In this document: one piece after another, positions 1,326 to 39,066 of the stretch
Layout: every line of letters begins with the position of its first letter
How positions within the stretch are numbered: the stretch's first letter is position 1
Virus record (IMG/VR): IMGVR_UViG_2866474162_000001
Location: 1 to 64,000 of that record
Reading direction: 5' to 3' (one strand)
DNA: 64,000 bases
From: a virus
Lineage: Duplodnaviria > Caudoviricetes
Translations under genes and position numbers: made by a program
Notes under the pieces: model-generated
What the model was told of the DNA's origin: nothing
Database searches by the model: none
The model's input: the letters and a program-made list of their open reading frames with translations, nothing else

Positions 1326-2564
1326 GTGGCATCAGTCGAGAAGCGGACGACGAAGGACGGCAAGAGCACTCGGTGGCGGGTGAAGTGGCGCGAGGGCGGC
1401 CGCCGCGAGAACCCGTGGAGCAGCCGCACGTTCGACTACCAGGCCGACGCGAAGCGGTTCAAGACGCTGGTCGAGGTCGTCGGCGAGCGGATGCCGACGC
1501 CGGAGCAGCTGGTCGAGCACGGCTTCGCCGAGCTCCTTCCCGTCGGCGTGGCCGCCCCGGCGCCGGAGCCCGCCGAGCAGGTGCTGACGTTCCGGGCGTA
1601 CGCCGAGGAGTGGCTGGGCCAGCTGGTGAAGCCGCACCCGGAGACGGTGCGCAAGTACCGGGAGCGCTTGGAGAAGCACGTCTTCCCGCGGCTGGGCGAC
1701 CGGCCGATCGCCGAGATCACCCGGCGGGAGATGCGCGAGTGGCAGCAGGCCCTGCGCGACGCCGGCCTCTCGGCGAAGACGATCGCCAACATCCGGGGTG
1801 AGAGCGTGGTGCCGATCTTCAAGGCGGCGTGCCGGCCGGGCGAGGACGGGGAGCCGGCCGTGCGGACGTCGAACCCGATGGACGGGCTGCCGCTGCCCGA
1901 GGGCCCGCGCGCCGAGCGGGACATCCTGGAGAGCCCGGACGAGGCCCGGCTGTTCCTGGAGGCGGCGTACCAGGTGGACCCGGAGGCGGCGGACCTGCTG
2001 CTGTGCAAGCTGTCGACGGGGCTGCGCTGGGGTGAGGTGTCGGCCCTGCCGCCCCGGGCGGTCAACGTCGCCCGCTCCACGGTGTCCATCGTGCAGGTCC
2101 TGCGGAAGGTGAACCGGCGGTGGGTGGTCGAGCCCAAGCCGAAGACGAAGCAGGGTTACCGGGAGGTGCCGCTGACCGCCGCGGTGGCGCGGATGGTCGC
2201 CGAGCGGTGCGCGGCCGCCAGCCGCGAGCCGGGCCGGCAGTTCGTGTTCGTGGCGCCGCGCGGCAACCACTGGCGGTACGAGGACTTCTACACGGACCGG
2301 TGGGTGAAGATCCGCGACCTGGCCCGCGAGAAGGGTCTGCCGCGCCGGATGACGATGCACGGGCTGCGGCACTCGCTGCTGACGCTGCTGGCCACGGAGG
2401 GCGTCGACCTGGCGGCGCTGCGGACGATGGCCGGGCACGCCAGCGTGACGACGACGATGAACGTGTACGTGCACGCGACGCGGCGGCACCACGAGCCGGT
2501 GCGGCAAATCGTCGGGGGCTTCCTCGGCGTCGATGCGTTGGCCACGGGCTCACCCGTCGGGTAG
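1326..2564 (+). CDS. int: Tyrosine recombinase / phage integrase
   Basis: GTG at 1326 after GGAGG; N-terminal arm-binding region (WRVKWREGG), core domain, catalytic TGLRWGE, HGLRHS and GHASVTTTMNVYVH. Confidence 0.95.
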   Translation: MASVEKRTTKDGKSTRWRVKWREGGRRENPWSSRTFDYQADAKRFKTLVEVVGERMPTPEQLVEHGFAELLPVGVAAPAPEPAEQVLTFRAYAEEWLGQLVKPHPETVRKYRERLEKHVFPRLGDRPIAEITRREMREWQQALRDAGLSAKTIANIRGESVVPIFKAACRPGEDGEPAVRTSNPMDGLPLPEGPRAERDILESPDEARLFLEAAYQVDPEAADLLLCKLSTGLRWGEVSALPPRAVNVARSTVSIVQVLRKVNRRWVVEPKPKTKQGYREVPLTAAVARMVAERCAAASREPGRQFVFVAPRGNHWRYEDFYTDRWVKIRDLAREKGLPRRMTMHGLRHSLLTLLATEGVDLAALRTMAGHASVTTTMNVYVHATRRHHEPVRQIVGGFLGVDALATGSPVG

Positions 2565-2581
2565 CGAGGTCCACCCGACAG

Positions 2582-2614
2582 CGAGCGGGCGGCGGGTCAC
2601 CCGCCGCCCGCTCG
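2582..2614. terminator. 15-bp perfect hairpin after integrase
   Basis: CGAGCGGGCGGCGGG-TCA-CCCGCCGCCCGCTCG. Confidence 0.7.
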
Positions 2615-3065
2615 GGCGCCATCGACCGGCGGGCTGCACTGGCATCGGCGGGCAGGCAAACGAGGCGTCGACTGGTCGCCGGGACCGGCGCCTTGAGTGG
2701 CGAGGCGTGCCGAGCAGTGGCTCTTGAAGAACCGTCCATGAGATGCGAGTCTCACTCGCTATGAGCCGCAATGGACACGGGCGCCCACGTCAGCCGAGCG
2801 ACGAAGTCGCGGAACGACGCGAACGGCGCGATGCACGGATCCGCGCCGAACGCACCGAGCTCGCGATGGCGGAGATGGACGACAAGCCGCCGACCGAGGA
2901 CATCGAATTCGGACCCGGTCGTGATACGCGTGCATGGCGCGGAGGATCGCCCGGGCTCGGACGAGGCCGATGACCTGCCCGACGTGGCGCCGTAGCGATC
3001 GGATCGCGGCTACTTAGAGACGTTGTGGCGGCCCAAGGCCGAAGCGATTTCGATGCGTGAGGGGG

Positions 3066-3860
3066 TCAGGGCAGGATCGCGTCGACGTACCCACCGTCGA
3101 CCCGCACCGCACCACCGGTCGTTGCCGAGGACAGCGGTGAGCTGAGATAGGTCACAAGATTGGCGATCTCCTCCGGCTCGATCAATCGCTGCAGCAGCGA
3201 TTGCGGCCGGTGCTGCCTCATGAAAACGCGCTGTGCTTCGTCCCAGGGCAGGTCGCGGTCGACGAGCTGGTAGACGAAGTCCTCCACTCCGCCGGTGTGC
3301 GTGGGCCCCGCGATGACCGAGTTGACCGTAACGCCAGTCCCGGATGCTTCCTTCGCGAACCCTCGGGAAACGGCGAGCAGCGCCGTCTTCGACATGCCGT
3401 AGTGGATCATCTCGGTCGGGATGACGACCGCGGAGTCGCTGGCGATGTACAGGATCCGCCCCCAACCGCGGCTCGACATGCGGGGTAGATGATGCCGGGT
3501 CAGCCTCACGGCGGCGAGGACGTTGACCTCGAAGAACTGGCGCCACTCCGCGTCGGTGATCTCCAATGCGGGGCGCGACTCGAAGATGCCCAGGTTGTTG
3601 ACCAGCACGTCCACGTGAGGCAGCGCTTCGGCCGCCGCCGCGAAGCCCTCGTCGGAAGCGACGTCGGCCACCACCGGCACCAGAGCCGCCTCGGGCAGCT
3701 CCATGCGTAGCTCGTCGATCGCCCGGTTGACGGAATCGGTCGACCGGCCGTTGACGCCGACGCGTGCTCCGGCGGCGGCCAGGCCGCGGACGATGGCGAG
3801 GCCGATGCCCTGCGTGGAGCCGGTCACGAGCGCAGTCCTGCCGGCCAGGTCGATCCTCAC
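3066..3860 (-). CDS. Short-chain dehydrogenase/reductase (cargo)
   Basis: TGSTQGIG Rossmann motif, NNLG, catalytic YGMSK (YxxxK). Confidence 0.95.
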   Translation of the reverse strand: MRIDLAGRTALVTGSTQGIGLAIVRGLAAAGARVGVNGRSTDSVNRAIDELRMELPEAALVPVVADVASDEGFAAAAEALPHVDVLVNNLGIFESRPALEITDAEWRQFFEVNVLAAVRLTRHHLPRMSSRGWGRILYIASDSAVVIPTEMIHYGMSKTALLAVSRGFAKEASGTGVTVNSVIAGPTHTGGVEDFVYQLVDRDLPWDEAQRVFMRQHRPQSLLQRLIEPEEIANLVTYLSSPLSSATTGGAVRVDGGYVDAILP

Positions 3861-4953: not shown

Positions 4954-5188
4954 GAGTTCACCCTCGGTAGCCAGTAAGCCGGGGATCGCGTAGCCCATCA
5001 AGCGGAGTAGGAAGCAGCAGCGGGCGGCGTGCCGGTGGGGTGGGGGCGGCGGCTAACCGCCCGTCGGAGACCGATCCTCCTAGGATGGTCTAGGAGGTGT
5101 GGCGTGGGGCGGGGGCGTCCAACTGCCGGCATCGGGCCGGCACGTCGCCGATGAGTGCGCAGAACGATCTGTCCTGGACGCCCCCACG

Positions 5189-5371
5189 TCAGCGGCGCCC
5201 CGCCAGTGCCGGGCACGCCTGGTAAGCGGCTTCAAGGTCCGCCTCGGTGAAGCGGACCTTGCGGCCGAGGCGGTGGCAGGGGACGCGGCCCTTGGACACC
5301 CAGCGCCGGAGGGTGGTCTCCGCGATGCGAAGCTTCGCCGCGGCCTCGGCGTAGGTGTAGTCCCTGGCCAC
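5189..5371 (-). CDS. xis: Excisionase-like HTH protein
   Basis: 60 aa, YTYAEAAAKLRIAETTLRRWVSKGRVPCHRLGRKVRF; GGAGGAGG RBS. Confidence 0.85.
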   Translation of the reverse strand: MARDYTYAEAAAKLRIAETTLRRWVSKGRVPCHRLGRKVRFTEADLEAAYQACPALAGRR

Positions 5372-5544
5372 CTCGTCCTCCTCCTTCCCTCCGGCACTGG
5401 TGTTGGGTCACTGTAGACCATTGCGGCCCGATAGGTCTACGGTGGGCTACGACAGGCCACGGCGAGAGCGGAAGCCGCCGGCACCTCTCGCTAGCCGCCT
5501 GGTGTACGGCTACGATCTGGCACTGCGCGTGCATGGCACGCGAT

Positions 5545-5617
5545 GCGCTGGAAGTGCTGTTGGCTGGCACGCCGCCGTTCCACGGTGGAGGCCCAGGTTC
5601 GAATCCTGGCCGGCGCT
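5545..5617 (+). tRNA. tRNA-Gly(TCC), non-canonical, CCA not encoded
   Basis: Acceptor GCGCTGG/CCGGCGC, D-stem GTGC/GCAC, anticodon arm CCGCC-GTTCCAC-GGTGG (TCC at 5579-5581), T-arm CCAGG-TTCGAAT-CCTGG, discriminator T5617 followed by CGA. Confidence 0.85.
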
Positions 5618-5651
5618 CGACGCCCGGCCACGGGGGAAGGTGGTGAGCGGC

Positions 5652-6998
5652 GTGTTCCACGGCAGCATCCCGGCTGACCTGCGCTCGATCATCTACGAGC
5701 ACGCGGAGTCCTGGCCGGACACCGACCTGTACGTCGGCTGCTCGGGGAACTTCACGATCGAGCGGACGCTGCACAGCCGGCCCGGCGAGCGCCGGGCGAT
5801 CCACGGCAACGACGTCCAGGCGTACAGCTCGGCGCTCGGCTGGTGGCTGGCCGGCCGGGAGCTGGACTACCGGCTGAAAGACGAGCACCGCGAGGAGCTG
5901 GCCTGGCTGGAGCCGTACTTGGCCACGTCGACGGACACCCTGGCGACGCTGATGCTCGGCACCCGGTTCCTCCAGTACGTCGGCCGGGAGGGCGTCTACT
6001 ACGAGCGGATGGTTCGGGCGACCGTCGGGCAGTTCCCGTCGATGCACGCCAAGACAGTGGGGAAGCTGTCCGCGCTGACGCTGCGGCTGGCCGACTACTA
6101 CTGCGGTGACGTGCGGGACTACCTGCGCGACGTCGTGGCGGCCGACGCGCCGGTGGCGATGTTCCCGCCGTTCTACGCGGGCGACTACGAGCAGCAGTTC
6201 GCCGGGATCGACGAGTTCTTCGACTGGCCGGCGCCGAGCTACGACCTGCTCGACGAGGACGGCAAGGAGGAGATCATCGGCGCGGTGCTCGACCGGCCGC
6301 ACTGGATCCTCGGCCTGCACATCGCCCGCGACGAGCTGCGCCCCTGGCTGCGCGGCGTCGTCCAGACCAGCAACCGCGGCATGCCGATCTACGTGTACGC
6401 CAGCTCGGGCGCGCGGCGCGTGGTCGCGCCCGCCCAGCAGGTCGCGCCGATCCTGCTGCCGAAGATCGGCCCCGGCGAGGACCTCGGCGACCGTATGGCG
6501 ATCCACGTGCTGACGGGCGGCCAGTTCGCGGCCGTGCGGTCGCAGTTCATGAGCAAGACGATCCTGCCCGGCTCCCCGTTGCTCGCCTGCGGCGTCAGCG
6601 TCGACGGGAAGCTCGTCGGCGCGTTCGCGTACCTGCCGCCGAAGTTCGACCCGAGCACCGCCTACCTGATGAGCGACTTCCCCGTGTCGTGGACCCGGTA
6701 CCGGCGGCTGGCGAAGCTGATCGTGATGGCGGCCGCCAGCCGCGAGGCACAGCTGCTGTTGCAGCGGTCCCTGTCGAAGCGGCTGACCGGCTGGTCGACC
6801 ACGGCGTTCACCGACCGACCGAACAGCGCCAAGTACGGACGGGGCATCCCCGGCGTGAAGCTGCAGAAGCGCAGCGATGCGGCCGCCGACGGCATCCACC
6901 GCTACCAGCTCCAGTACGGCGGCCCCCTGGGTAACTGGACCCTGCAAGAGGCGCTGGCGGAGTGGAAGCGCCGCCACGGGAAGGACGAGCGACGATGA
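5652..6998 (+). CDS. N6-adenine-MTase-like domain fused to a GNAT/Mom-like domain (putative DNA modification / antirestriction enzyme)
   Basis: N-terminal DLYVGCSGNFT (motif I-like), GNDV, and MFPPFY (degenerate motif IV); C-terminal GVSVDGKLVGAFAY...YLMSDFPV...RRLAKLIV...TTAFTD pattern resembles a GNAT fold. Start could be 5640, 5643 or 5652. Confidence 0.7.
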   Translation: MFHGSIPADLRSIIYEHAESWPDTDLYVGCSGNFTIERTLHSRPGERRAIHGNDVQAYSSALGWWLAGRELDYRLKDEHREELAWLEPYLATSTDTLATLMLGTRFLQYVGREGVYYERMVRATVGQFPSMHAKTVGKLSALTLRLADYYCGDVRDYLRDVVAADAPVAMFPPFYAGDYEQQFAGIDEFFDWPAPSYDLLDEDGKEEIIGAVLDRPHWILGLHIARDELRPWLRGVVQTSNRGMPIYVYASSGARRVVAPAQQVAPILLPKIGPGEDLGDRMAIHVLTGGQFAAVRSQFMSKTILPGSPLLACGVSVDGKLVGAFAYLPPKFDPSTAYLMSDFPVSWTRYRRLAKLIVMAAASREAQLLLQRSLSKRLTGWSTTAFTDRPNSAKYGRGIPGVKLQKRSDAAADGIHRYQLQYGGPLGNWTLQEALAEWKRRHGKDERR

Positions 6999-7450
6999 GC
7001 GACGAGCACCGCGGCGGCGAGCAGGCCGGCTGCCCGAAGACGCTGTGGGACGGGATGACGCCCCACCAGTGCGACAAGGGCGCCGACACGGGCGTGTGCC
7101 CGACCCACGGGCGGTTCCGGCACGACCAGCGGCCGGCCTCAGCCGACCCGGACAGGCCGTGCCCGCACGACGACCTGCACCTGGACGCCGACGTGCAGCG
7201 GCTGACCGCCTCCGAAGACGACCCCACGGTGGTGGCGTACATCGTGGAGCTCTCGATCCGCTGCCTGAGCTGCCAGGAGCGATTCCGTTGGACGGGCGTG
7301 CCCGCCGGGCTTATGCCGAACCGGCCGGCCTGCTCGCCCGACGAGTTCGTGCTGCACGCGCCGATCCGGCCCGCGAGCGCCGACCCGGACTTCGGGCTCG
7401 GCATCCCCGGGTTCGCCATCCAGTACCGCGAGGGAGGCGGGCAGCGGTGA
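6995..7450 (+). CDS. Cys/His-rich hypothetical protein
   Basis: ATGA overlap with the upstream stop; several C/H clusters including CLSC. Confidence 0.7.
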   Translation: MSDEHRGGEQAGCPKTLWDGMTPHQCDKGADTGVCPTHGRFRHDQRPASADPDRPCPHDDLHLDADVQRLTASEDDPTVVAYIVELSIRCLSCQERFRWTGVPAGLMPNRPACSPDEFVLHAPIRPASADPDFGLGIPGFAIQYREGGGQR

Positions 7451-8388
7451 GCGACGTCGACGAGCTGGCAGGGCCCGCCGACGGCGGCCCGCTGAACCTG
7501 CGCCCCGAGACGGTCGACCCGGCCAGCCTGACGCTGCTGGAAGTCAACGCGCGGTACATGCGCAAGGAGATGTTCGACCGCCTGGTGGCGAACGTCAGGC
7601 GGGACGGAGCGCTGACCAGCACGCCCCTGGTGTGGAACGACACGGCCGGCGGTCGGATGGTCGTGCTGTCCGGCAACCACCGGATCATGGCGGCCCGGGA
7701 GGCCGGCCTGGCGCAGGTCAACGTCATCGTGGTCGACCAGCCGCTGACCCGCGCCCGGCAGGTCGCGTTGCAGCTGTCGCACAACGCGATCGAGGGCGAG
7801 GACGACCCGGCCACGTTGAAGCAGCTGTACGAGGAACTGGACGACGTGGACTGGCGGGCCTACTCGGGCCTGGACGACAAGCAGCTCGACCTGCTCGCGC
7901 AGGTCGACCTGGAGGGCCTGTCCGAGGCGAACCTGGACTTCGCCACGGTGCAGCTGGTGTTCCTGCCGTACGAACTCGAGGCGGCCCGCGCCAGCTTCGA
8001 CGAGGCGCGGAAGCTGACACAGGCCGACGCCCGGTGGCTCGCCGGGTACGGCGACTACGAGGCCACCCTGGACGCCCTCGCGACGGCCCACGGCGCCCAC
8101 AACGTCGGCAACGTAGCCACCGCACTCGGCCTCATCCTCGCGGTGTTCGAGCGGCACCTCGGCGAGCTGCGCGACGGCGTGTGGCTCGACGAGGAGAGCG
8201 GCGAGCCGATCGGGCACGCGCACCGCCTGGTGCCGATCGAGACGGTGCTGGAGACACGCTCCATGCCGGCCGACGCGGCGGCGGTGCTGCACCGCGCCGT
8301 GGACAAGCTGGTCCGTACGGGCGAGGTGCCCGCCGACCAGCGGTGGCGGGCGCTGGAGCTGCTGGCCGCCGACTACCTCGCCGGATGA
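7447..8388 (+). CDS. ParB/Srx-like domain protein
   Basis: GTGA overlap; NARYM...LTSTPLV...VVLSGNHRIMAA ParB N-terminal motif. Confidence 0.85.
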   Translation: MSDVDELAGPADGGPLNLRPETVDPASLTLLEVNARYMRKEMFDRLVANVRRDGALTSTPLVWNDTAGGRMVVLSGNHRIMAAREAGLAQVNVIVVDQPLTRARQVALQLSHNAIEGEDDPATLKQLYEELDDVDWRAYSGLDDKQLDLLAQVDLEGLSEANLDFATVQLVFLPYELEAARASFDEARKLTQADARWLAGYGDYEATLDALATAHGAHNVGNVATALGLILAVFERHLGELRDGVWLDEESGEPIGHAHRLVPIETVLETRSMPADAAAVLHRAVDKLVRTGEVPADQRWRALELLAADYLAG

Positions 8389-8579: not shown

Positions 8580-8870
8580 ATGACCGGACCCGCCCAGAGC
8601 GGCGAGGACCTGTACGCCGGCCTCGACGAGCGCCAGCGGTACGAGCTGGACCGGCGGTGCGACTACCACCCGCCGAAGAACCTGGAGACGGCCGAGGCGC
8701 ACGCGGCGTGGCGGAAAACGATCAAGGGCGTGATGGCGGAAGCCATGCGCAGCCTGCCCGCCGGCCGCGAGACGTCGATGGTGCTGACCGCATTGGACGA
8801 CGCCCTGATGTACGGCAACGCGGCGATCGCCCGGCCGCCCATGAGCGGGGGACGCAAGGTCGGGCACTGA
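8580..8870 (+). CDS. Acb2/Tad1-like helical-hairpin protein (putative anti-defence)
   Basis: Strong GGAGGAG RBS; RRCDYHPP...LPAGRETSMVLTALDDALMYGNAAIAR resembles the REKSLALTKLEEALMWANAAIAR-type hairpin. Confidence 0.6.
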   Translation: MTGPAQSGEDLYAGLDERQRYELDRRCDYHPPKNLETAEAHAAWRKTIKGVMAEAMRSLPAGRETSMVLTALDDALMYGNAAIARPPMSGGRKVGH

Positions 8871-8926: not shown

Positions 8927-9541
8927 GTGACCATGAGCGAGCCGGAGGTGCTGCCCTGGGACCGGCAGCGCAGCGAGCCCGAGCGGGCGTACGGGTACTT
9001 CGCCCTGTACCGCGACGTGGGCCGCACCCGCACCGTCGCGAAGGTCGCCGAGCAGGTCCACAAATCCCGGGATTACCTCCACAAGCTCGCGACGAAGTGG
9101 CGGTGGGTGCAGCGGGCGCAGGCGTGGGACCGGGAAGAGGACCGGCTGTACGCCGAGAGCCTGGCCGAGCAGCGGCGCGACATGGCCCGCCGGCACGCGC
9201 GGGTGGCGTCGGCGCTGCAAGGGAAGATCGTCGCCCGGTTGCAGACCCTCGACGCGTCGAAGCTGACCCCGGGCGACGTGGCCCGCTGGCTGGAGGTGTC
9301 GACCCGGGTCGAGCGGCTGGCCCTGGGCCTGCCGGACTCCACGACCGCGCACACGGGCCCGGACGGCGGGCCGATCCGCGCCGAGGTCGAGCAGATGAGC
9401 GAGCAGCAGCGCGCCGACTTCTTCCGGGCGCTGATGGCCGAGGCCGCCGCCCGCGCCGGCCAGGCCAACCTGACCGCCGAGCCGGACGATCCGGGCGGCG
9501 ACGACGAGGAGGAGCCCGGTGGGGAGACGGAGCAGGGATGA
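8927..9541 (+). CDS. Probable terminase small subunit (HTH)
   Basis: PWDRQRSE...AYGYFALYRD.G..RTVAKVAEQ HTH, RAQAWD motif; positioned ahead of TerL. Confidence 0.7.
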   Translation: MTMSEPEVLPWDRQRSEPERAYGYFALYRDVGRTRTVAKVAEQVHKSRDYLHKLATKWRWVQRAQAWDREEDRLYAESLAEQRRDMARRHARVASALQGKIVARLQTLDASKLTPGDVARWLEVSTRVERLALGLPDSTTAHTGPDGGPIRAEVEQMSEQQRADFFRALMAEAAARAGQANLTAEPDDPGGDDEEEPGGETEQG

Positions 9542-10057: not shown

Positions 10058-11455
10058 ATGCTGCTGGCGTACCCGGACCCGGCGCTGATGACCGACGCCG
10101 AGCTGGCCGCGTACCTGCGCGAGGTGTCGGAGGTCCAGGGCCTCGTCCGGTACGACTGGCCGAGGCACGCGAGGCCGGAGCAGCTGGAGCCCGCCTGGTA
10201 CCGGATCTGGATGCTGCTGGCGGGCCGTGGCTTCGGCAAGACCCGCACCGGGGCGGAGACGGTGCGCACGTGGGCGGGGACCAGGCCGGGCGGGCACTAC
10301 GCGGTGGTCGCGAAGACGCACCGGGAGGTGTTCAACGTCTGCTTCACGGCGCGGCGTGCCGGCCTGCTGGCGGTGATCCCGCCGAAGGAGGTGCGGACGT
10401 TCAACAAGAGCGAGCCGTACCTGGAGCTGACCAACGGGGCGATCATCCGCGGGTTCGGCGCGCAGGACCCCGACGTGCTGCGTGGCTATGACTTCGACGG
10501 CTGTTGGCTCGACGAGTACGCGGCGTGGCCGGTGCAGACGGCGCAGGGCGTGTTCGACATGCTGTGGTTCTGCATGCGCGAGGCGGCGAGCCCGCGCATG
10601 GTCATCTCCACGACCCCGAAGCCGCTGCCGCACGTGAAGAAGCTGCTGGCGCGGTCGAAGAAGCAGCGTGCCCGTTCCCGCCGGCCCCGGGTGGTGGTGA
10701 CCCGCGGCCGGACGCTGGACAACGCGGAGAACCTGTCGCCGGAGGCGCTGGAGGAGCTGCTGGAGCAGTACGGCGGCACCCGGCTGGGCCGGCAGGAGCT
10801 GGACGCCGAGATGCTGTCCGACGTCGACGGCGCGCTGTGGAAGTCGGCGTGGATCGAGGCCGGCCGGTTCGACAAGGACGACGTGCCGCCGCTGGTGCGG
10901 ACGGTCGTGTCGGTCGACCCGGCGGACACGGTGTCGGAGACGAGCGACGAGACGGGCATCGTCGCGGTCGGCCGGGGCGAGGACGGCGAGCACTACGTGC
11001 TGGCGGACCGGAGCATGAAGATCGCCGGCATGGCGGCGGCCCGCCGGATCTGGCAGTGCTACCTGGACGTCGACGCGGACGTGGTGGTGTACGAGGGCTC
11101 CTCGGCGTGGCTGCGGGACATCCTGGTCGACGCGTGGGTGGCCATGCAGAAGGAGGACTTGCTGCCGGGCGGTGACCCGCCGATCGACGTGGTGCAGGCC
11201 CGCCAGTCGAAGCGGGTGCGCGCCGAGCCGGTGGCCGCCCGGTACGAGGTCGACCCGCCGCGCGTGCACCACGTCGGCACGTTCCCGGCGCTGGAGGACC
11301 AGCTGACGACCTGGACGCCGGAGTCGGGCGACTCCCCGGACCGGCTGGACGCCCTGGTGCACGGCGTGACGTACCTGCGGTCGAAGGAGTCCCGGCGTGC
11401 CTTAGTGGCTTCACCCCTCGGCCAACAGGTTCGACCAGCTGCGAGGCCCGGATGA
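10058..11455 (+). CDS. terL: Terminase large subunit
   Basis: Walker A AGRGFGKT, Walker B CWLDEYA, nuclease VSVDPA and PDRLDAL. Confidence 0.95.
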   Translation: MLLAYPDPALMTDAELAAYLREVSEVQGLVRYDWPRHARPEQLEPAWYRIWMLLAGRGFGKTRTGAETVRTWAGTRPGGHYAVVAKTHREVFNVCFTARRAGLLAVIPPKEVRTFNKSEPYLELTNGAIIRGFGAQDPDVLRGYDFDGCWLDEYAAWPVQTAQGVFDMLWFCMREAASPRMVISTTPKPLPHVKKLLARSKKQRARSRRPRVVVTRGRTLDNAENLSPEALEELLEQYGGTRLGRQELDAEMLSDVDGALWKSAWIEAGRFDKDDVPPLVRTVVSVDPADTVSETSDETGIVAVGRGEDGEHYVLADRSMKIAGMAAARRIWQCYLDVDADVVVYEGSSAWLRDILVDAWVAMQKEDLLPGGDPPIDVVQARQSKRVRAEPVAARYEVDPPRVHHVGTFPALEDQLTTWTPESGDSPDRLDALVHGVTYLRSKESRRALVASPLGQQVRPAARPG

Positions 11456-12922: not shown

Positions 12923-12968
12923 ACCCTTGTCGTACCCGCCTGTTCACGTGGAAGAGGAGAGAGCGGAA

Positions 12969-14603
12969 GTGACAGCAGCAGTGAAGGCGCGGCCCCGGGG
13001 CAAGAAGGCCCCCTACCTCGCGCAGATCGACCCGCGGGAGCTGGTCGCGCACCCGACCAACCTCCGCACCCAGCTCGGCGACCTGACCGAGCTGCGCGCC
13101 TCGATCGCCGCGAGCGGCGTTCTGCAGGCGCTGACCGTCGTCCCCGAGGACGGCGGCATGCGGATCGTCGCAGGGCACCGCCGGGCGGCGGCGGCCGTCG
13201 AGGCGATCGAGGCCGGCGAGTGGCCCGACGGCACGCCGCAGACGGTGCCGTGCCTGGTGCGGCCCGACATGGAGGGGATGGCCCCCGCGCAGGTCGTCGC
13301 CATGCTGATCGAGAACGACCAGCGCGCCGACCTGACCGAGAGCGAGCGGGCCGCCGGATACGCGCAGCTGGAGCTGTTCGGCCTGGACGTCGCCGAGATC
13401 GCGCGGCGGACCGGCCGCACGCAGAAGCACGTCAACGCGGCGTTGAAGCTGACGAAGCTCGGCGAGGTCGCCACCGGCGCGGCCGACGCCGGCAAGCTGA
13501 CCCTGGAGGACGTCGCCGAGCTGGAGCAGTTCGAGGACGACCCGAAGGCGATGGAGCGCATCCTCAAGGGCGTCGAGAGCGGCTGGGGCGTCCGGCACCG
13601 CGTGCAGGAGGAGAAGCGCAAGCGCGACGACAAGAGCGCGACCGAGACGCTGACCGAGGAGCTGACGGCGGCCGGCGTCCGGGTGTTGAAGAAGCCGAAG
13701 GACTGGCCGTGGAACTGCGCGATGACCAAGGTCGAGGACCTGACCGACGCCGACGACCAACCGATCGACGTCGAGCAGGTCAAGACGCTGGAGGGGTTCG
13801 GCGCGATCATCGAGGGCTCGTACGGGAACATGCGGGCCGTCATCGTGTGCGAGGACCCCGACGCCCACGGGTACAAGCGCACGAAGTGGACGCAGTACAA
13901 GAGCCCCGCGCAGAAGGTCGCCGAGGAGCTGGCGAAGCGGGAGGCCGAGGAGCGGCGGCAGAAGCTGCTGGACGCCGGTGAGGTGCGCCGCCGGTTCCTC
14001 GTCGAGCGGTGGGGCAGCGCGAAGGCGGCGAAGACGCTGCTGGTCGACGCGATGCGCGCCGCCGTGGTGATGCCGGGCTTCTACGACCGGGCCGAGGAAG
14101 AGCTGGTCGCGGCCCTGGCCGGCGGTGACCCGCGCGACGGGCAGACCGCCGGGATCGACCGGCTGAACCGGCTGCTGGTCGCCCGGTTCGTCGCCGCGCA
14201 CGAGGCCAACACGTCGACCGTGGCGGCCGGGCGGTACTCCAACCGGAACCACCTGGTGCTGCCGTGGTTGAACCGCCTGGTGGCCGAGGGCTACGAGCTG
14301 TCGGAGACCGAGAAGACCTGGCACGCCGAGCTGGTCGAGGAGGAGGAAGAGCGGCAGCGGGCGCTGGAGCAGGAAGAGGCCGAGGCGGCGGCCGAGCTGG
14401 AGTACGACGACGCCGAAGGCTACGTGGAGGACGCCGAGGGTGTGCGGCCGATCGAGGACGTGCAGCTGCCCGAGGGCGACGTCGAGCCGGCGGCCGAGCC
14501 GGACGACGACGCCGACGGCGACGGCGAGCCGCAGGCTGAGACGGACCCGTGCCCGGACGCCGACCTGGACGCGGCCGAGCCCGAGGCCGGCGGCGAGCAG
14601 TGA
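12969..14603 (+). CDS. ParB/Spo0J-like protein with acidic tail
   Basis: IDPRELVAHPTNLR, IVAGHRR, ENDQRADLT motifs, followed by an HTH. Confidence 0.88.
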   Translation: MTAAVKARPRGKKAPYLAQIDPRELVAHPTNLRTQLGDLTELRASIAASGVLQALTVVPEDGGMRIVAGHRRAAAAVEAIEAGEWPDGTPQTVPCLVRPDMEGMAPAQVVAMLIENDQRADLTESERAAGYAQLELFGLDVAEIARRTGRTQKHVNAALKLTKLGEVATGAADAGKLTLEDVAELEQFEDDPKAMERILKGVESGWGVRHRVQEEKRKRDDKSATETLTEELTAAGVRVLKKPKDWPWNCAMTKVEDLTDADDQPIDVEQVKTLEGFGAIIEGSYGNMRAVIVCEDPDAHGYKRTKWTQYKSPAQKVAEELAKREAEERRQKLLDAGEVRRRFLVERWGSAKAAKTLLVDAMRAAVVMPGFYDRAEEELVAALAGGDPRDGQTAGIDRLNRLLVARFVAAHEANTSTVAAGRYSNRNHLVLPWLNRLVAEGYELSETEKTWHAELVEEEEERQRALEQEEAEAAAELEYDDAEGYVEDAEGVRPIEDVQLPEGDVEPAAEPDDDADGDGEPQAETDPCPDADLDAAEPEAGGEQ

Positions 14604-17472: not shown

Positions 17473-17772
17473 ATGGCTGAAACGAGACGACGGTTCGACC
17501 GGGAGTTCCGCGAGGGCGCGGTGCGCATCGTGCGGGAGACCGGCAAGCCCATCGCGCAGATCGCCCGGGACCTGGGGATCAACGAGGGCACTCTGGGTAA
17601 CTGGGTCAACCAGGACAAGCGTGCTCGCGGCGAGGCCGCGGCCGGCGGTGGGCTGTCCGAGGACGAGCGTGCCGAGTTGATGCGGCTGCGGAAGGAGAAC
17701 GCCGAGCTGGCGATGGAGCGTGACGTGCTCAAGCGATCCGTGGTCCTGTGGGTCAAGGAGGCGACGAAGTGA
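17473..17772 (+). CDS. IS3 transposase OrfA
   Basis: [19 protein letters not shown] plus leucine zipper ([16 protein letters not shown]). Confidence 0.95.
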
Positions 17773-18659
17773 GCGTGGCAGCGTTCGTGGCTTCCCAGAG
17801 GACCGAGCACGGTGTGCCGCACACGGTGACCTGCCGCGCGTTGGGCCTGTCCGAGTCGTGGTTCTACAAGTGGAAGGATCGGCAGCCCACGCCTGGTCAG
17901 CGTCGGCGGGCCGAGCTCGCCGAGAAGATCCGCGAGGTCTTCGACGCCTCGGGCGGCACCTACGGCTCACCTCGGGTGACCCAGGAGCTGCGGGCGGCCG
18001 GCTGGCGGGTCGGGGAGAACACGGTGGCCCGGTTGATGGCCGAGCTCGGCCTGGCCGGACGCGCACCGAAGCGGCGGCGCGGCCTGACCAGGCAGGGTAA
18101 GCGGCCGGCGGCGCCGGACCTCGTGCGCCGGCAGTTCACCGCACCGGCGCCGAACGTGTTGTGGTGCGGGGACATGACCGAGATCGTGACCGGGGAGGGC
18201 AAGCTGTACCTCGCCACGGTGATCGACCTGTTCTCCCGCCGGCTGCTCGGCTACGCCATGTCCGCCCACCACGACGCCGACCTGGTGGTGGCGTCGCTGC
18301 GCATGGCGACTGCCACTCGTGGTGGCGACGTCGACGGGGTGATCTTCCACTCGGATCGGGGCAGCGAGTACACCTGCGAGGCGTACGAGACCGCCTGCTC
18401 CCGGCTGGGGGTGCTGCAGTCGATGGGCCGCGTCGGTAGCGCGTTGGACAACGCCGCGGCGGAGGCGTTCAACTCCACCATCAAGGTCGAGTACATCCAC
18501 CGGCAGCAGTTCCGCACCCGCGCCGAAGCACGGTTAAAGATCTCGACCTGGATTGTGGACTTCTACAACCTCCGTCGCAGGCACAGCGCCTGCGACGGCA
18601 TGTCACCCATCGACTACGAGCATTTCATGGCCGAGGCCAGGAGGGCCGAAGCCGCTTAA
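17769..18659 (+). CDS. IS3 transposase OrfB (DDE)
   Basis: GTGA overlap; [25 protein letters not shown]. Confidence 0.95.
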
Positions 18660-20631: not shown

Positions 20632-21080
20632 CGCGGCCTCCCCTTCGTTGCGCAAACTCTGCGAGATCTCTAAGAATTCTCTAAAAGATTCGTGATCATC
20701 ATCATCGGCCGTTCGGACGATGTCGAGCGTCAGTGGTTGGCGTGGCGGGACGGATCGTCTCAGCAGATGTGGCCCCGTCGGTCCTAGTCCAGCTCTCAAG
20801 AGAACGCTGACCTGGGATCCCAACTGAGGTTTCCGTAGGCGGAGCGGGGTCGGGGCAGGTAGGCCGAGGTCGATACTTGATCTCGTAACGTGCAGGCCTC
20901 ACGCATTCGTTGTGGCTGATTTGCGCCCGGTCCCCGCTTCGGCTGTTCGACGATGGCGGGGGAGGAACGAAGCATGAGCGCCGCTCGCAATCTCGAAGGG
21001 TCGGGCTGGAGGGGGTGAGCTCGGACTGGCGGTGGGAGACGTCGCTGGGTGGGCCGGTACTACGCCGGCCTGTCGCCCCG

Positions 21081-22088
21081 ATGCTGGCCGCGCCGGTCGA
21101 CGCGGTGCCCGAGGGTCCGAACCTGGTCTATGAGCCGAAGTGGGATGGGTGGCGGGCGCTCGCCTTCCGGGGAGCCTCCGACGTCTACTTGCAGTCGCGC
21201 GCCGGCAGGAATCTGACGCCGTACTTCCCGGATATCACGCGGGCGGTGCGGGCCTTCGTTCCGCCCGGTGTGGTGCTCGATGGGGAACTGGTCGTCTGGG
21301 AGCGCGGGCGGACGAACTTCGCCCTGCTGCAGCGGCGGGTCACCGCGGGCCGACAGTTGCTGCGCGAGGCCCGTGAGCACCCGGCCTACTACGTCACCTT
21401 CGACCTTCTCGTCGACGCTGGCGGGGAGCCGGTGCTCGACGCGCCGCTGGTCGAGCGTCGGGCGCGGCTGGTGCGGCTGCTCGCCGGCGCCCCGCCGCAG
21501 TTGGCGGTCACCCCGCAGAGCGCCGACCTGTCCGAGGTGAGCGGATGGCTGACCACCTGGACCGCGGCGGGCGTCGAAGGGGTTGTGATCAAACGCGTCG
21601 ACAGCCGGTATGAGCCTGGCCGCCGAGGATGGGCGAAGTTCCGGGCACGTGCCACCACGGAGGCGATCATCGGCGGCGTCACCGGCAGCATCCGCAACCC
21701 CGAGACTGCTCTCCTCGGCCGCTTCGACCGGCGGGGTCGACTGCGATACACCGGCCGCACACACCCGCTGGCCACGCCGCAGCGTCTGGAGCTGGCTTCG
21801 CTGCTCGCGCCGCCACGCCCGACCGACCGCCCTGTTGTCATCCATCCCTGGCCCGATCCGCTCCCGGCTTCCTGGTCCGGCCAGTTCGAGCGGCCCGAGC
21901 CGCTGCGCTACACCCAGGTCGAGCCCACCGTGGTGGCTGACATCGAGGTGGACACGGCCTACGAGCACCACCGGTGGCGTCACCGCGTCCGGTACGCGCG
22001 CCCAAGGCCGGACCTGTCGGTGTACGACGTGCCCCTGATCCTCAACGAGGGTGAAGATCCCTTCTCCGGCCACGCGCGCAGCGCCTGA
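21081..22088 (+). CDS. ATP-dependent DNA ligase (LigC-like)
   Basis: PMLA, YEPKWDGWR adenylation motif, LDGELV, EGVVIK, YEPGRRGWAK. Confidence 0.92.
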   Translation: MLAAPVDAVPEGPNLVYEPKWDGWRALAFRGASDVYLQSRAGRNLTPYFPDITRAVRAFVPPGVVLDGELVVWERGRTNFALLQRRVTAGRQLLREAREHPAYYVTFDLLVDAGGEPVLDAPLVERRARLVRLLAGAPPQLAVTPQSADLSEVSGWLTTWTAAGVEGVVIKRVDSRYEPGRRGWAKFRARATTEAIIGGVTGSIRNPETALLGRFDRRGRLRYTGRTHPLATPQRLELASLLAPPRPTDRPVVIHPWPDPLPASWSGQFERPEPLRYTQVEPTVVADIEVDTAYEHHRWRHRVRYARPRPDLSVYDVPLILNEGEDPFSGHARSA

Positions 22089-22149: not shown

Positions 22150-23466
22150 TCAGGCAGCAGGTCGGTCTGATCGAGGGGCCCAGTTGCTGCGGTCGGCCCA
22201 CGCGTCAGCCCCTACCTCGGCCTGAGGAAAAGGAGTTGTGTCGTGGCCGCGAGTGCCGAGGTCGGGGCGCTCCTTCCGTTCCTGCTCGTCGATCTTGATC
22301 AGGTCCGACATGGCTTCGACGTGCAGCCGTTCTGCGTCGAGCAGGTAGGAGATGAAGGTGTGCACCGTGTCGAGCAGGGCCTTCTCCGGATTGCTGCACG
22401 AGGAGAACAGGCCGTTGACGGCTTCGATGTAGCTCTTGAGGGCGCCGATGAGCGTGCCGATGTGCTGGTAGCCGAGGCCGGCGTAGGCGTTGCGCAGGCC
22501 CTCAAGCATGCTGGCGGCCTTCTTGCCCTCCTCGGCCAGCCAGCGTGTCTGGGCTTCGAGCTGTGTGAGATAGGCCGCCGCGCGGTCGGCGTACTGGCTG
22601 AAGGCTTGCGAGGCGCTGCCTTCCCAGTAGAGCTTGAGGTTCTTCAGTTCGCCGTCCATCTCGGCGCGGAGCTCCGCGTAGGTGTTGGCGGCCGAGTGAA
22701 CCAGGTCGGCGCGGTTACGGATGATCTTGGGTGAGGACCGCCAGGCGTGGACCATAAGGTTGGTCAGGGGAAGGCGCTCGCCCGTGCCCAGCTCGATCAG
22801 GATCGCTTCGAGCTGGAGCAGCGTGTCCCGGTACTCGTGGATGAACGTGTCGAGTTGGTCGCCTTCGCCGTTCTCGTAGTAGGTGGTGCGGCCGCCGCTG
22901 AAGCCGAGGTTGTTGCCGTCGGTGCTGCCGATGGTGATCGGTTCCTCGACCTCGCGGGTTCGTGGCAGCTTCTCGTTGCGGGTGGCGCCCAAGCGGTCAT
23001 TGCCATCGGGGATCACCACCACAGGCTGGTCGTCCGGAAGCCTCCTGTCGTGCGGTTGGGCGAGGACGCCGGCTCCGCCGGGGCGGACCCGTACGCTGCC
23101 GCCGTAGCCGTCTCCGAGTGGCAGATAGGGCAGCAGGTCCCGATTCATCACGTCGAAGTTGGTGGCGACGTCCAGCTCGGTGCCCTCGTAGTCCGCCGCG
23201 ATCTGCATGAGCCCGTCGGCCATGCGCTCCATCTCGTTACGGGCAGTGTTCGCCTCGGAGATCCTGCTGCCCAGTGCGGTTGCCCAGTCCCGGTTCAGCT
23301 TCTCCGAGATGCCTTCGAGCGTGCCCCACGCCGCAGCGGGGATAGATCCGACATCGCCGAGGTAGCGCCCGACGGCGCTGTAGGTCACGGCGTCTTCGTA
23401 GCGCTCCACGCCGAAGGCCACCAGGGCCCGCGACTCGACCCGAAGGGCGGACGTGTCCGTGGTCAT
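22150..23466 (-). CDS. WXG100-like (type VII secretion target) protein
   Basis: Helical protein with YWEGSASQAFSQY (WxG). Confidence 0.65.
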   Translation of the reverse strand: MTTDTSALRVESRALVAFGVERYEDAVTYSAVGRYLGDVGSIPAAAWGTLEGISEKLNRDWATALGSRISEANTARNEMERMADGLMQIAADYEGTELDVATNFDVMNRDLLPYLPLGDGYGGSVRVRPGGAGVLAQPHDRRLPDDQPVVVIPDGNDRLGATRNEKLPRTREVEEPITIGSTDGNNLGFSGGRTTYYENGEGDQLDTFIHEYRDTLLQLEAILIELGTGERLPLTNLMVHAWRSSPKIIRNRADLVHSAANTYAELRAEMDGELKNLKLYWEGSASQAFSQYADRAAAYLTQLEAQTRWLAEEGKKAASMLEGLRNAYAGLGYQHIGTLIGALKSYIEAVNGLFSSCSNPEKALLDTVHTFISYLLDAERLHVEAMSDLIKIDEQERKERPDLGTRGHDTTPFPQAEVGADAWADRSNWAPRSDRPAA

Positions 23467-23768
23467 GACTCTTGCCACTCCCCGTGCTGCAACTCGACGG
23501 GCGTGAACGGCTCAGCCCCGACGGGTGAGCCGAAGTAGTCGATGCGAAGCTGGCGGTACTGCCGCCGGTGATCGGCGACCGCGGCAAGGAGCGCCGTGCG
23601 AATCTCGGAAGCCACCTCGTCCGGGCTGCATTGACGCACCATGCCGCGGATGATGACGACATTGATCTCCCCATCGTGGTGCCGGATCACCCGCACCCAC
23701 CGATTGACGGAGACACCTTTGGCCGTGATCCGGCCGACGTCCTCGAAGTAGCGCTCAAGCTTGCCCAC
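23463..23768 (-). CDS. YbaB/EbfC-like small protein
   Basis: Beta-hairpin plus helix (VASEIRTALLAA); overlaps the WXG100 start. Confidence 0.5.
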   Translation of the reverse strand: MGKLERYFEDVGRITAKGVSVNRWVRVIRHHDGEINVVIIRGMVRQCSPDEVASEIRTALLAAVADHRRQYRQLRIDYFGSPVGAEPFTPVELQHGEWQES

Positions 23769-28371: not shown

Positions 28372-28570
28372 CACCGCGACGCCGTGCATAGCCACGCCGG
28401 TCACACCGGCCTCAGCGGGTGCTATGGATGTTCGTCCAAGGGCTGCGGCCGTTGGCCTCGTTGGATGCGGGGTGCGCCGTAGTGGATGGTGTCCACATGG
28501 GGGGGCCAGGGCGTAGCCTCACGTTCGGTTCGTGCTGTATCGGCTAGCGTTGTCTTGAGTTCAGCAGGAG

Positions 28571-31500: not shown

Positions 31501-32329
31501 GAGCGACACCGCGCGGGAGCTCGCCACGCTGTACGGCCCGTGCTGGCTCGCTACCGAGATCGCGGTGATCGGCGCGGCGAGCCCCGACAGCCTCTGGACC
31601 ACAGGTGGCACCATCACCCGAGGTGCAGAACCGTTCGGGCCGGACCCCGACTACGGCAAGCTCCTCCAAGAGTCGCGCTTCAACAGATCCAACGCCGATT
31701 GGTGGAAGCACCATTTCGATACCTACGCTGACGCGCTGTCTCGGGCGAGCTGGTGCCTCGCTCTGATTGCCGTCGCCTCTGAGCCGGTCGTGCTGAGCAA
31801 CCTCGAAAGACTCGATGCGGCAGTGACTGCGATGCCGGCAGAAATGCAACGTGCTCTTAGCCTAAGTTCCAGCCGCCTAGGCGTAGCGCGCCTCGGCAGG
31901 CGCATCCGCCCTGATGTGCTACGGCGTGCTGGCTCCTTCTCCACCCTCACGGCCATGCTCGTCGCGCACCACTCTCTCGAGACCAATCGAAAACTGGACG
32001 AGCTCCAAGGCCTTACTGACCAGCAGCTCGCCGAAATGGGTCGATTCGGTGTCGCCGGTTGGCCCGGCCTGCGCGGGCTTAGCGCACGTATGTTCAAGCT
32101 TCCGTCAGCGGAGCTACTTGACGGCCTTCGTGCTCACGGCCACGATGCTGTAGTTGGCTTGGAAGGGCAGCGGGGGCCTCTGCCTCAATCGCTGCTTTTG
32201 TCGATATTGGAATCACCTGCCGACTACCCGATGGCGTGGGTTCTTGCCGCGGAGCAGCGGGTCGCGTTCAGTTTCCGGGACCGGCCGCTCGCGCAAGTAG
32301 CCGAGGCGTGGTTTCCCAGGCTCGGTTAG
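28571..32329 (+). CDS. REase-like N-terminus + NACHT/STAND NTPase (NLR/Avs-like)
   Basis: FQQLCNALL...KDGGRDA...YQVKW; Walker A GEPGQGKST; Walker B VVLDGLDE; long helical C-terminus. Confidence 0.88.
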   Translation: MSSTMTSGGSARSERYLYERLSEKLFQQLCNALLVLQFPDVSCFPVGQKDGGRDAVRKEGQKPGVIYQVKWSKDAVKNPVTWLAATIKEETKNIERLVAEGATAYVLMTCIAGTSAPGTGRMDKLDAELAEYSKQFGIPMTCWWRADIDARVESAPRELVWSFSEMLAGQDAVRYVIEADKIAAHEQTLRRLLLSLIATQWEEDAKVKFRQVEMDTYNLLDLYVDVEAVRIAKPRNAAPKPAVTTIHIPDDDDPLPRPPVHQYLVDGTLTPEEEQALGGAAQYLLNATQPLILVRGEPGQGKSTLAQYLCQLHRAAFLPEGEYFAGPRPKRAVSAPRLPLRVDLRDYARWCSGEDPFAEDEARSPRRRRPRPQPTLEKFLAHLIAARSNGADVGVDAVIDVISRFPMLVVLDGLDEVAHQDARKRIVREIDEFAARLGAGATAPQLIVTTRPNASGLAEPSADKFETIALVPLSPDLRAAYLRKWADARGLRGMARRALEGTFRHRSIEPHIAQLADNPMQLTILLYLIQKRGDSVPDGRTQLFRAYMETFLDRESEKSRSVHEHRDDLEEVTAYLGWHLQASAETDPAAGRVPTRAVRKAILNYLDDVEKDTTLVDDLFTAVTDRVWALTSKVQGTFEFDIQTMREYFAASYLWGYAGADLRGFDKSTILGELVRRAYWLNTCRFFAGFANPNELSGLVDVLEEEFDGRQRPMQVRLAAWTLLQDGVFARQTRAQKRATRLFADDLSVRLIDDALRDKRAFTYPNRAVRALAEDRGAGHLVSLLLEKTKADPNHNLGPTRISLATQIGADIHEWWLPHMAAAAGSQNELAWLRCGIPFRGAARLKPDEVARLRLNSTEAAEVAISCGLKAPTGSPLEQKLIRAVLDGHCSEASLTAATGVAGDLIKVLAPWRFLSRARKHPDGAHRVSVGHRFVVGISDQSREVAQRRLRDYEPSFDRVLSAMRVGRGQAGTTSMWSDTARELATLYGPCWLATEIAVIGAASPDSLWTTGGTITRGAEPFGPDPDYGKLLQESRFNRSNADWWKHHFDTYADALSRASWCLALIAVASEPVVLSNLERLDAAVTAMPAEMQRALSLSSSRLGVARLGRRIRPDVLRRAGSFSTLTAMLVAHHSLETNRKLDELQGLTDQQLAEMGRFGVAGWPGLRGLSARMFKLPSAELLDGLRAHGHDAVVGLEGQRGPLPQSLLLSILESPADYPMAWVLAAEQRVAFSFRDRPLAQVAEAWFPRLG

Positions 32330-35633: not shown

Positions 35634-35636
35634 GGC

Positions 35637-39063: not shown

Positions 39064-39066
39064 CGG

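Follow-up and report, generated by a model that had tools for sequence, protein, structure and literature searches.

A prophage tRNA-Gly syntenic with a Dam-like/GNAT enzyme gene: a candidate glycyl donor for phage DNA modification

A tRNA-Gly at the head of a phage operon

We analyzed a 64,000-nucleotide (nt) stretch of DNA (here called the window; positions 1 to 64,000 of IMG/VR virus record IMGVR_UViG_2866474162_000001), which carries a Caudoviricetes prophage of an actinobacterial host. Two tRNA genes were called in the window by ARAGORN, i.e., tRNA-Leu(GAG) at 982-1068 and tRNA-Gly(UCC) at 5545-5618 on the plus strand. The tRNA-Gly, which is the subject of this report, heads an operon with the order tRNA, Dam-like/GNAT fusion, small Cys/His protein and ParB-like protein, followed by the terminase genes. 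An earlier note on this DNA, made from its letters alone, had proposed that the tRNA-Gly is a chargeable donor tRNA tuned away from elongation factor Tu (EF-Tu) and the ribosome, and that it is selected rather than decaying. The elements of the operon are as follows.

5511-5516, plus strand: -10-like box TACGAT (TACnAT in relatives), about 29 nt 5' of the tRNA, found by alignment
5545-5617, plus strand: tRNA-Gly(UCC), 73 nt, from ARAGORN, Rfam, the sequence, the family alignment and the minimum-free-energy fold
5618-5620, plus strand: 3' trailer CGA; no CCA is encoded, and its addition after transcription would be needed
5643-6998, plus strand: Dam-like/GNAT enzyme gene, 451 amino acids (aa), beginning 25 nt past the tRNA
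6995-7450, plus strand: small Cys/His-rich open reading frame (ORF), 151 aa with 7 Cys and 7 His, with a coding-like G+C content at third codon positions (GC3)
7447-8388, plus strand: ParB-like (ParB_N-type) gene, with a GTGA overlap with the preceding Cys/His ORF

The prophage tRNA-Gly is a real tRNA of glycine identity. It matches the tRNA family of Rfam (RF00005; 5545-5617; 46 bits; E value of 1.3e-6), and its minimum-free-energy fold is a cloverleaf (-35.9 kcal/mol). The acceptor stem (GCGCUGG/CCGGCGC) contains G1-C72, C2-G71 and G3-C70 and is followed by U73 at 5617, and the 7-nt anticodon loop (5577-5583) reads G32-U33-U34-C35-C36-A37-C38. The glycyl-tRNA synthetase (GlyRS) identity set that the earlier note had listed as intact (i.e., G1-C72, C2-G71, G3-C70, U73, C35 and C36) can thus be read directly in the sequence, as can the A51-U63 pair that it had pointed out in the T stem (CCAGG/CCUGG, with C49-G65 and C50-G64). 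The variable loop has 4 nt, A8 lies at 5552 and U14 at 5558, and the elbow is canonical, with a GG-containing D-loop (G18G19) and a UUCGAAU T-loop. The host genome has four canonical tRNA-Gly genes (GCC twice, UCC and CCC), all with the acceptor stem GCGG(A/G)(C/U)G and the T stem GCGGG/CCCGU; the acceptor stem of the prophage tRNA differs from theirs at positions 4 to 7. The match to the tRNA family described below exceeds what chance would give: a covariance model of this family scored the window copy at 78.6 bits, and its next best match in the host genome reached 50.4 bits. The CGA in place of CCA, which the earlier note had counted among the deviations, is present and is not unusual: CCA is encoded in 16 of the 51 clean host tRNA genes (and in 27 of 56 members of the tRNA family), so the trailer is uninformative.

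The motif ACGGCTACnAT is kept in ten aligned Micromonospora/Actinoplanes loci amid otherwise divergent upstream DNA, and a generic sigma-70/terminator scan of 5150-5750 found nothing. The alignment suggests that the TACnAT box is a candidate promoter of the tRNA-enzyme operon, with the tRNA as the first element of the transcript. The enzyme gene starts with GTG at 5643, or alternatively at 5652, after the ribosome-binding site GGGGGAAGG. The Cys/His ORF is translationally coupled to it through an ATGA overlap with the enzyme stop codon; its product has no match in Pfam or PHROG, and it occurs only in the window and close Micromonospora-type loci, while elsewhere the ParB-like match mostly lies directly after the enzyme. 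The ParB-like gene is translationally coupled as well, and the ParB_N match of its product (7447-8388) is weak (E value of 1.9e-4). A ParB-like orthologue was found by tblastn directly downstream of the enzyme in 67 of 68 related loci, and the records of phages Soos, Clawz and Argie label the gene "ParB-like nuclease domain protein".

Homologues of the enzyme were gathered from deposited phages (Gordonia phages Soos and Clawz, Mycobacterium phage Argie, and others), from IMG/VR and from GTDB genomes (Micromonospora, Actinoplanes, Streptomyces, Nonomuraea, Kitasatospora, Nocardiopsis, Kutzneria and other genera). A homologous tRNA lies just 5' of the enzyme in almost all of the approximately 80 related loci (prophages, phages and metagenomes). 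Of 68 related loci, 52 have an ARAGORN-called tRNA-Gly immediately 5' of the enzyme gene, and a covariance model built from these ARAGORN-found copies (R1) detected the tRNA in 66 of 69 sources, the window counted. The distance from the end of the tRNA to the enzyme match was 8 to 207 nt in 61 of the 66 R1-positive loci; in three loci (L020, L063 and L065), an apparent 1.3-kb gap corresponds to an intein inside the enzyme gene. One locus that was first scored negative (L045) has two tRNA copies 4 and 6 kb upstream (G001:C4 255410-255480 and 257474-257544). Five of six further IMG/VR loci (enzyme identity, 36 to 67%) have one to three tRNA copies, and three of four unrelated metagenome contexts, including a contig with 43% G+C content, have an upstream Gly-type tRNA. 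The linkage holds from 97% down to approximately 36% enzyme identity, across phyla.

Several individual loci showed further peculiarities. Tandem tRNAs (two or three copies) precede the enzyme in some loci (L076 and L077, at approximately 2100-2470), and in these two loci both of the higher-scoring copies shown carry G33, not U33. Among the deposited phages, only the GenBank record of Argie annotates the tRNA (as tRNA-Gly); in Soos and Clawz, the enzyme gene is preceded by a 170-nt gap without annotation, which contains their copies (L001 3827-3897 and L002 3829-3899, respectively). These two tRNA-Gly-like genes were missed by ARAGORN and scored 45 to 48 bits with the family covariance model; they encode CCA and have nonconsensus T-loops of 8 nt (UAACCAAU/UAACCACU), and the anticodon loop of the Soos copy is CCCCCGG, i.e., C33 with a CCC anticodon. 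In Streptomyces sasae (L064), the enzyme gene (2501-3837) is frameshifted, with two stops in the matched frame, and the tRNA (2422-2493) has an A3·C70 mismatch and an extra T-stem base; its score (54.7 bits) is lower than that of any other locus from the actinobacterial genomes. Joint decay of the enzyme and the tRNA, or sequencing error, may account for these features.

Selection on the tRNA family and its predicted escape from decoding

A model-based alignment of the family contained 55 distinct tRNA sequences. Standard pairs occupied 97.8% of the pair cells, compared with 38 to 44% when the partners were slid; the percentage is inflated by the fitting of the alignment to the model, while the slide control and a MAFFT alignment point the same way. 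Compensatory (i.e., two-sided) changes were found at 16 of 21 pairs, a count that was reached by none of 500 shuffles. The homologues therefore do not show a random pattern of stem-breaking mutations, and the covariation across homologous loci that the earlier note had named as a check on its proposal is present. G1-C72, C2-G71, U73, C35 and C36 were invariant in the 55 copies, G3-C70 was kept in 54 and C50-G64 in 53. The cloverleaf and the GlyRS identity set are under purifying selection.

These glycine identity elements match those of Escherichia coli and Thermus (PMC9976931) and of Staphylococcus aureus (PMC7826273). The earlier note had spoken of the bacterial GlyRS identity set in general; the set is retained, with the correction that the host GlyRS is of the dimeric alpha2 type, not of the E. 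coli type. The set of the Thermus alpha2 GlyRS comprises G1-C72, C2-G71, U73, C35 and C36 plus C50-G64, G10 and U16 (PMC9976931), and the last three are also all present in the window tRNA-Gly. The acceptor stem is, moreover, conserved at G1-C2-G3-C4, i.e., beyond the known GlyRS requirement.

These patterns bear on the suggestion that the tRNA is a decaying pseudogene or an attachment-site relic, a suggestion prompted by its unusual positions (A8 and G32) and the lack of an encoded CCA. The A8/U14 combination, cited in the earlier note as a compensatory swap and thus as an argument for selection, is present but is by itself weak evidence for it: A8/U14 occurs in 13 distinct copies (it is typical of the Micromonospora clade) and U8/A14 in 13 (typical of a Streptomyces clade). 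With A/A, U/U or U/C in other clades, the family as a whole does not maintain the 8-14 pair. G32 is likewise present and is not an isolated oddity. It faces C38, and the family has C32-G38 in 42 copies and G32-C38 in 9, i.e., a covarying pair that could form a sixth stem pair. The compensatory changes and the invariant identity set effectively refute a relic, the lack of an encoded CCA is normal in this genome, and the tRNA-Gly is internal to the prophage, whose integrase adjoins the tRNA-Leu at 982-1068 instead. We therefore regard a relic as exceedingly improbable.

The positions that drift are those that matter to decoding and to the elbow. Position 34 holds U (46 copies), A (5 copies) or C (4 copies), and the only host tRNA with A34 is tRNA-Arg(ACG). 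U33 is replaced in 6 of the 55 copies, and distant relatives have G33 or A33; the T-loop has UGC for UUC (U55 to G) in 17, and GG is absent from the D-loop in 37. The T-loop of the Gordonia phage copies is, as described above, of nonconsensus length and sequence, and one relative has a 6-nt anticodon loop. The distant relatives with G33, A33 or the 6-nt loop still retain C35, C36 and U73. The window tRNA-Gly is among the more canonical, less deviant members of this family, and the argument that it acts off the ribosome comes mainly from its T stem and its relatives.

EF-Tu affinities were predicted with the additive T-stem model of Schrader and Uhlenbeck (PMC3239215, Table 2). The value predicted for the window tRNA-Gly is -9.2 kcal/mol, whereas that of the four canonical tRNA-Gly of the host is -11.2 kcal/mol, which is the tightest in the genome and is shared with one tRNA-Asp. 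On this model, the gap of 2.0 kcal/mol predicts roughly 30-fold weaker EF-Tu binding. The family members that could be scored (53 of 55) fall between -9.2 and -9.8 kcal/mol. Bacterial tRNA-Gly have a high-affinity T stem (G49-U65, C/U50-G/A64 and G51-C63; mean, about -10.8 kcal/mol), and glycine itself adds little to EF-Tu binding; the T stem of the window tRNA is predicted to fail this high-affinity pattern of elongator tRNA-Gly. In S. aureus, proteogenic tRNA-Gly have G49-U65, C/U50-G/A64 and G51-C63, and the nonproteogenic (NP) tRNA-Gly, which bind EF-Tu weakly, have A49-U65, U50-A64 and A51-U63 together with a TGC or TGT T-loop (Rietmeyer et al.). In the same model, the Staphylococcus NP tRNAs reach about -9.6 kcal/mol, i.e., they are predicted to bind more tightly than the window tRNA.

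The staphylococcal NP1-3 tRNA-Gly (PMC7826273) are a close functional parallel in several respects. They are extra tRNA-Gly(UCC) copies that retain the GlyRS identity elements and have a weak EF-Tu T stem that includes A51-U63, as the window tRNA does, and their UGC T-loop and GG-less D-loop recur in many relatives of the window tRNA. They serve the Fem transferases FmhB, FemA and FemB, and the window tRNA is linked to a GNAT-fold enzyme. The differences are as follows: the window T-loop is UUCGAAU, not TGC/TGT (UGC being found in 17 of 55 relatives), and the window copy retains GG; pairs 49-65 and 50-64 are A-U and U-A there and C-G and C-G here; the staphylococcal tRNAs are chromosomal, while the present one is phage encoded; and the acceptor there is lipid II, while here the partner is a Dam-like/GNAT protein and the presumed acceptor is DNA. 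The NP lineage has been reported in staphylococci only (PMC7826273), and the resemblance is functional and not by descent; the phage tRNAs form a separate lineage.

The tRNA could also be an ordinary phage decoder for GGA and GGG codons in lytic growth, with its enzyme linkage due to inheritance only. Many actinophages carry tRNAs, the Argie copy is annotated as tRNA-Gly, and the 7-nt loop, U33, the canonical elbow and the Rfam score of 46 bits of the window copy suit such a role. GGA is, however, the rarest Gly codon in prophage and host alike; it accounts for 4.1% of the Gly codons of prophage genes and for 3.2% of those of host genes (the host ORF set was picked with a GC3 filter that may introduce a slight bias). 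Codon supplementation was rejected on these low counts. A canonical tRNA-Gly(UCC) is already present in the host, and each of the host tRNA-Gly is predicted to bind EF-Tu 2 kcal/mol more tightly than the prophage tRNA does. Close relatives turn to ACC or CCC anticodons or lose U33 with C35 and C36 retained. The linkage to the enzyme, furthermore, persists over the whole range of enzyme identities given above. A decoder is thus very unlikely and, like a relic, fits the data poorly.

The Dam-like/GNAT enzyme and the proposed glycyl transfer

The enzyme matches two Pfam domains, i.e., DAM-like-phage1 (PF22555; N-terminal; E value of 7e-106) and GNAT-phage-like (PF22559; C-terminal; E value of 3e-58). 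Its family has 1,058 representatives at an E value of ≤1e-3 (approximately 1,000 clusters at 50% identity), and the fused 430- to 480-aa architecture is found in almost all of the 150 best matches listed. A search of the enzyme sequence against solved structures gave no match at an E value of ≤1. In an AlphaFold2 model (mean predicted local distance difference test score, 75.6), residues 4 to 257 match Dam-family methyltransferases (2ore_D, Z 10.6; 1yfl_A, Z 10.5; 2dpm, Z 9.5), and residues 279 to 431 match GNAT acyltransferases at Z 8.4 to 10.5, among them phage Mu Mom (8bv8_A; Z 9.4; root mean square deviation, 3.9 Å; 142 residues aligned). GNAT is the fold of known tRNA-dependent aminoacyl transferases.

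The catalytic motif IV of N6-methyltransferases is (D/N/S)PP(Y/F/W). At this position, the enzyme has F174-P175-P176-F177, which is invariant in 23 aligned homologues and has Phe, not Asp, Asn or Ser, as its first residue. This sequence makes N6 methyl transfer unlikely and is consistent with a pocket that binds adenine. E. coli Dam, T4 Dam and DpnM share with the enzyme the fold of its N-terminal 250 residues (Z 9.5 to 10.6), a motif I like its VGCSGN and the PPF loop at motif IV, and differ from all 23 homologues in the first residue of that motif. Some homologues (approximately 600 to 720 aa) contain an intein of approximately 250 aa exactly after FPPF(F/Y), with a Cys start and a His-Asn end followed by Ser or Thr (in loci L020, L063 and L065; proteins P0003, P0007, P0012, P0020 and P0038). 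Inteins typically occupy functionally critical sites. One further homologue (P0127) has an HNH-containing insert at another place in the enzyme.

The data directly support a real tRNA that is under selection, a relaxation of decoding features across the family, tight synteny of the tRNA with the enzyme and ParB-like genes, and the two domain folds. At the sequence level, the core proposal of the earlier note, i.e., a donor tRNA that can be charged, is adapted to avoid EF-Tu and the ribosome, and is maintained by selection, gains support because of the invariant identity set, the covarying helices, the EF-Tu model, the decoding losses of the relatives and the GNAT-fold partner. With somewhat better than even confidence, and by analogy, we favor the view that the tRNA is a private glycyl donor for a Mom-like modification of DNA adenine. 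Mom is the only precedent for a charged tRNA-Gly as the donor in a DNA adenine modification that protects against restriction. This GNAT protein transfers glycine from Gly-tRNAGly to the N6 of adenine in double-stranded DNA, and the adduct rearranges to N6-carbamoylmethyl-deoxyadenosine (N6-carbamoylmethyl-dA); it accepts all host tRNA-Gly isoacceptors and binds DNA via a helix-turn-helix (HTH)-like insertion, and its target adenine has been modeled as flipped out (Silva et al., PMC13219725). Other users of aminoacyl-tRNA with a GNAT fold are the Fem transferases, MprF, PacB and the L/F-transferase.

Expression, charging and the evasion of EF-Tu, as well as glycyl transfer, its DNA target and its product, are inferred along the following lines. 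The tRNA would form the first part of a transcript shared with the Dam-like/GNAT enzyme, from which it would be processed out; it would then receive its CCA and would be charged by the dimeric GlyRS of the host, a step proposed because the glycine identity set is retained. Since the T stem belongs to the weakest EF-Tu-binding class and glycine is itself weakly bound, the Gly-tRNA would largely escape EF-Tu and the ribosome and could be used by the neighboring enzyme. Of the two enzyme domains, the Dam-like one, disabled for catalysis (FPPF for DPPY), would bind DNA with the target adenine flipped out, and the GNAT one would transfer the glycyl group, on the model of phage Mu Mom and the Fem transferases. 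The product on phage DNA just before packaging would be N6-glycyl-dA, probably rearranging to N6-carbamoylmethyl-dA. The ParB-like protein may be an activator or a targeting factor, and through this protein and the place of the operon before the terminase genes, the reaction would be coupled to the DNA that is to be packaged. ParB-like proteins are needed to activate phage thymine dioxygenases (PMC13229309); in those systems, too, a ParB-like gene lies beside a postreplicative modifier of phage DNA bases, which belongs to another enzyme class and acts on another target base.

Membership of the enzyme in the Mom family was rejected, as the enzyme matches PF22555 and PF22559 and not PF25680, the family that Mu Mom (PDB 8bv8) matches, and no profile homology was found. 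The two have in common that they are phage proteins with a GNAT fold. Mom is a single 241-aa GNAT protein with no sequence homology to the enzyme and no tRNA of its own, whereas the present GNAT domain shares its polypeptide with a disabled Dam-like domain, and its gene is accompanied by those of a private tRNA and a ParB-like protein. Our best-supported reading, based on this analogy, is that the operon would implement the Mom strategy independently and in a more elaborate form.

Several observations weigh against a private glycyl donor for DNA modification. The GNAT domain showed no detectable sequence relationship to Mom (enzyme family profile versus Mom; hhalign probability, 0.3%), and Mom is structurally no closer to it than generic acetyltransferases are (Z 9.4 versus 8.4 to 10.5; Foldseek and VIA-align). 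In the Dam-like domain, conservation extends to motif I (VGCSGN) and to an N56-D57 pair, so this domain may bind S-adenosylmethionine or adenosine. The Kutzneria locus (L017 = L061), alone among the related loci of the main set, has a full-length enzyme homologue without a linked private tRNA, so the enzyme may also be usable with host tRNA-Gly. The window copy retains U33, the 7-nt loop, G18G19 and UUCGAAU and could decode GGA and GGG to some degree. Finally, the EF-Tu model was calibrated with E. coli and Thermus EF-Tu, not with actinobacterial EF-Tu, and T stems of -9.2 to -9.6 kcal/mol are normal among the other host tRNAs.

Some of these observations suit a different coupling, in which the tRNA donates no aminoacyl group to DNA and instead serves the enzyme as a substrate, cofactor or regulator: Gly-tRNA could be acetylated by the GNAT domain in the manner of TacT, the Dam-like pocket could bind or modify a tRNA adenine, or the tRNA could be a scaffold or activator. 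TacT-type GNAT toxins recognize Gly-tRNAGly via U73 and G71 (PMC9976931), which are both invariant in the present family. G1-C2-G3-C4 is conserved past the known GlyRS need, the conserved motif I means that an adenosine-binding pocket may survive, and synteny fits any functional coupling, whether donation or another. The Dam fold with a PPF loop of the DNA methyltransferase type nevertheless points to DNA, as do the conserved ParB-like partner and the site just ahead of the terminase genes. A phage would also gain little from acetylating a tRNA that it encodes itself. The invariance of C35 and C36, which lie approximately 75 Å from the acceptor end in standard tRNA geometry, is best explained by a need for charging by GlyRS. 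We consider the substrate or regulator role unlikely and retain glycyl donation to DNA as the preferred explanation.

Prophage context and implications

The other features of the window that were assigned are as follows.

982-1068: tRNA-Leu(GAG), directly upstream of the tyrosine integrase gene (ARAGORN)
1263-2564: tyrosine integrase, beside the tRNA-Leu
5189-5371, minus strand: excisionase-type HTH gene
8580-8870, plus strand: Acb2/Tad1 hairpin protein, 96 aa (PF24729; E value of 1.2e-10), between the ParB-like gene and the small terminase gene
8927-9541: small terminase
10058-11455: large terminase
12927-14603: ParB-like partition protein, in the lower-GC block
17724-18659: transposase, in the lower-GC block
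20889-22088: ATP-dependent DNA ligase, in the lower-GC block
22150-23511: WXG100-domain protein, in the lower-GC block
28559-32329: NACHT NTPase, in the lower-GC block
32553-35636 (HsdR), 35637-36860 (HsdS) and 37458-38357 (short HsdM ORF): type I restriction-modification set, in the lower-GC block
39064-40947: portal
44395-46131: major head protein

The tRNA-Leu(GAG) at 982-1068 is likely the integration site of the prophage. A second copy of its 3' end was not found (25-mer, ≤3 mismatches), and no exact repeat of ≥16 nt was shared with 881-1300, so that attR was not located; either the far end of the prophage lies outside the window or the attachment core is only short. The lower-GC block (11500-38600; approximately 27 kb), which lies between the large terminase and portal genes and also contains a resolvase-like ORF, looks like a defense or cargo island that entered the packaging module and may have disrupted the prophage.

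The Acb2/Tad1 hairpin protein is a candidate anti-CBASS/anti-Thoeris nucleotide sponge, and this antidefense neighborhood is in line with another role for the tRNA, i.e., that of a spare or decoy that replaces or shields host tRNA-Gly against tRNA-directed toxins (TacT-like acetyltransferases, the toxSAS FaRel2, which targets tRNA-Gly, or anticodon nucleases). Some known toxins are specific to the acceptor stem of tRNA-Gly, and altered anticodon loops could evade nucleases. A replacement must work on the ribosome, however, which conflicts with the weak T stem, A34 or C34, the loss of U33 and U55, and the 6- and 8-nt loops. A decoy would be expected to mimic the host acceptor stem, from which the private one differs at positions 4 to 7, and it would not need the strict linkage to one enzyme family that is seen in almost all of the approximately 80 loci. 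Such a counterdefense role is quite unlikely.

Phage tRNAs are, to our knowledge, nearly always explained as codon usage helpers or as spares against tRNA-cutting defenses. Our literature search, with most subscription journals outside its reach, retrieved the Mom papers and the work on Staphylococcus tRNAs, and it found nothing on phage-encoded nonproteinogenic tRNAs or on PF22555/PF22559. In its broadest form, our proposal is one that could go either way: a widespread phage system in which an orthogonal tRNA, charged by GlyRS and kept off EF-Tu and the ribosome, would feed a Dam-fold/GNAT enzyme that aminoacylates adenines of phage DNA before packaging. For annotation, we recommend that a tRNA-Gly gene immediately 5' of a PF22555+PF22559 gene not be classed as a decoder, and several such tRNA genes are unannotated in deposited phage genomes (e.g., those of Gordonia phages Soos and Clawz). 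If the proposal is true, phage tRNAs would have a third role, in which they are selected for charging and not for decoding and supply an amino acid to a DNA-modifying enzyme. Dedicated nonproteinogenic tRNAs, known only from Staphylococcus cell wall synthesis, would then extend to viruses, with the present family as the first that is virus encoded. The tRNA and its enzyme would form a natural pair that is orthogonal to translation, and tRNA-dependent DNA modification would have arisen at least twice, in Mom and in the Dam-like/GNAT family.

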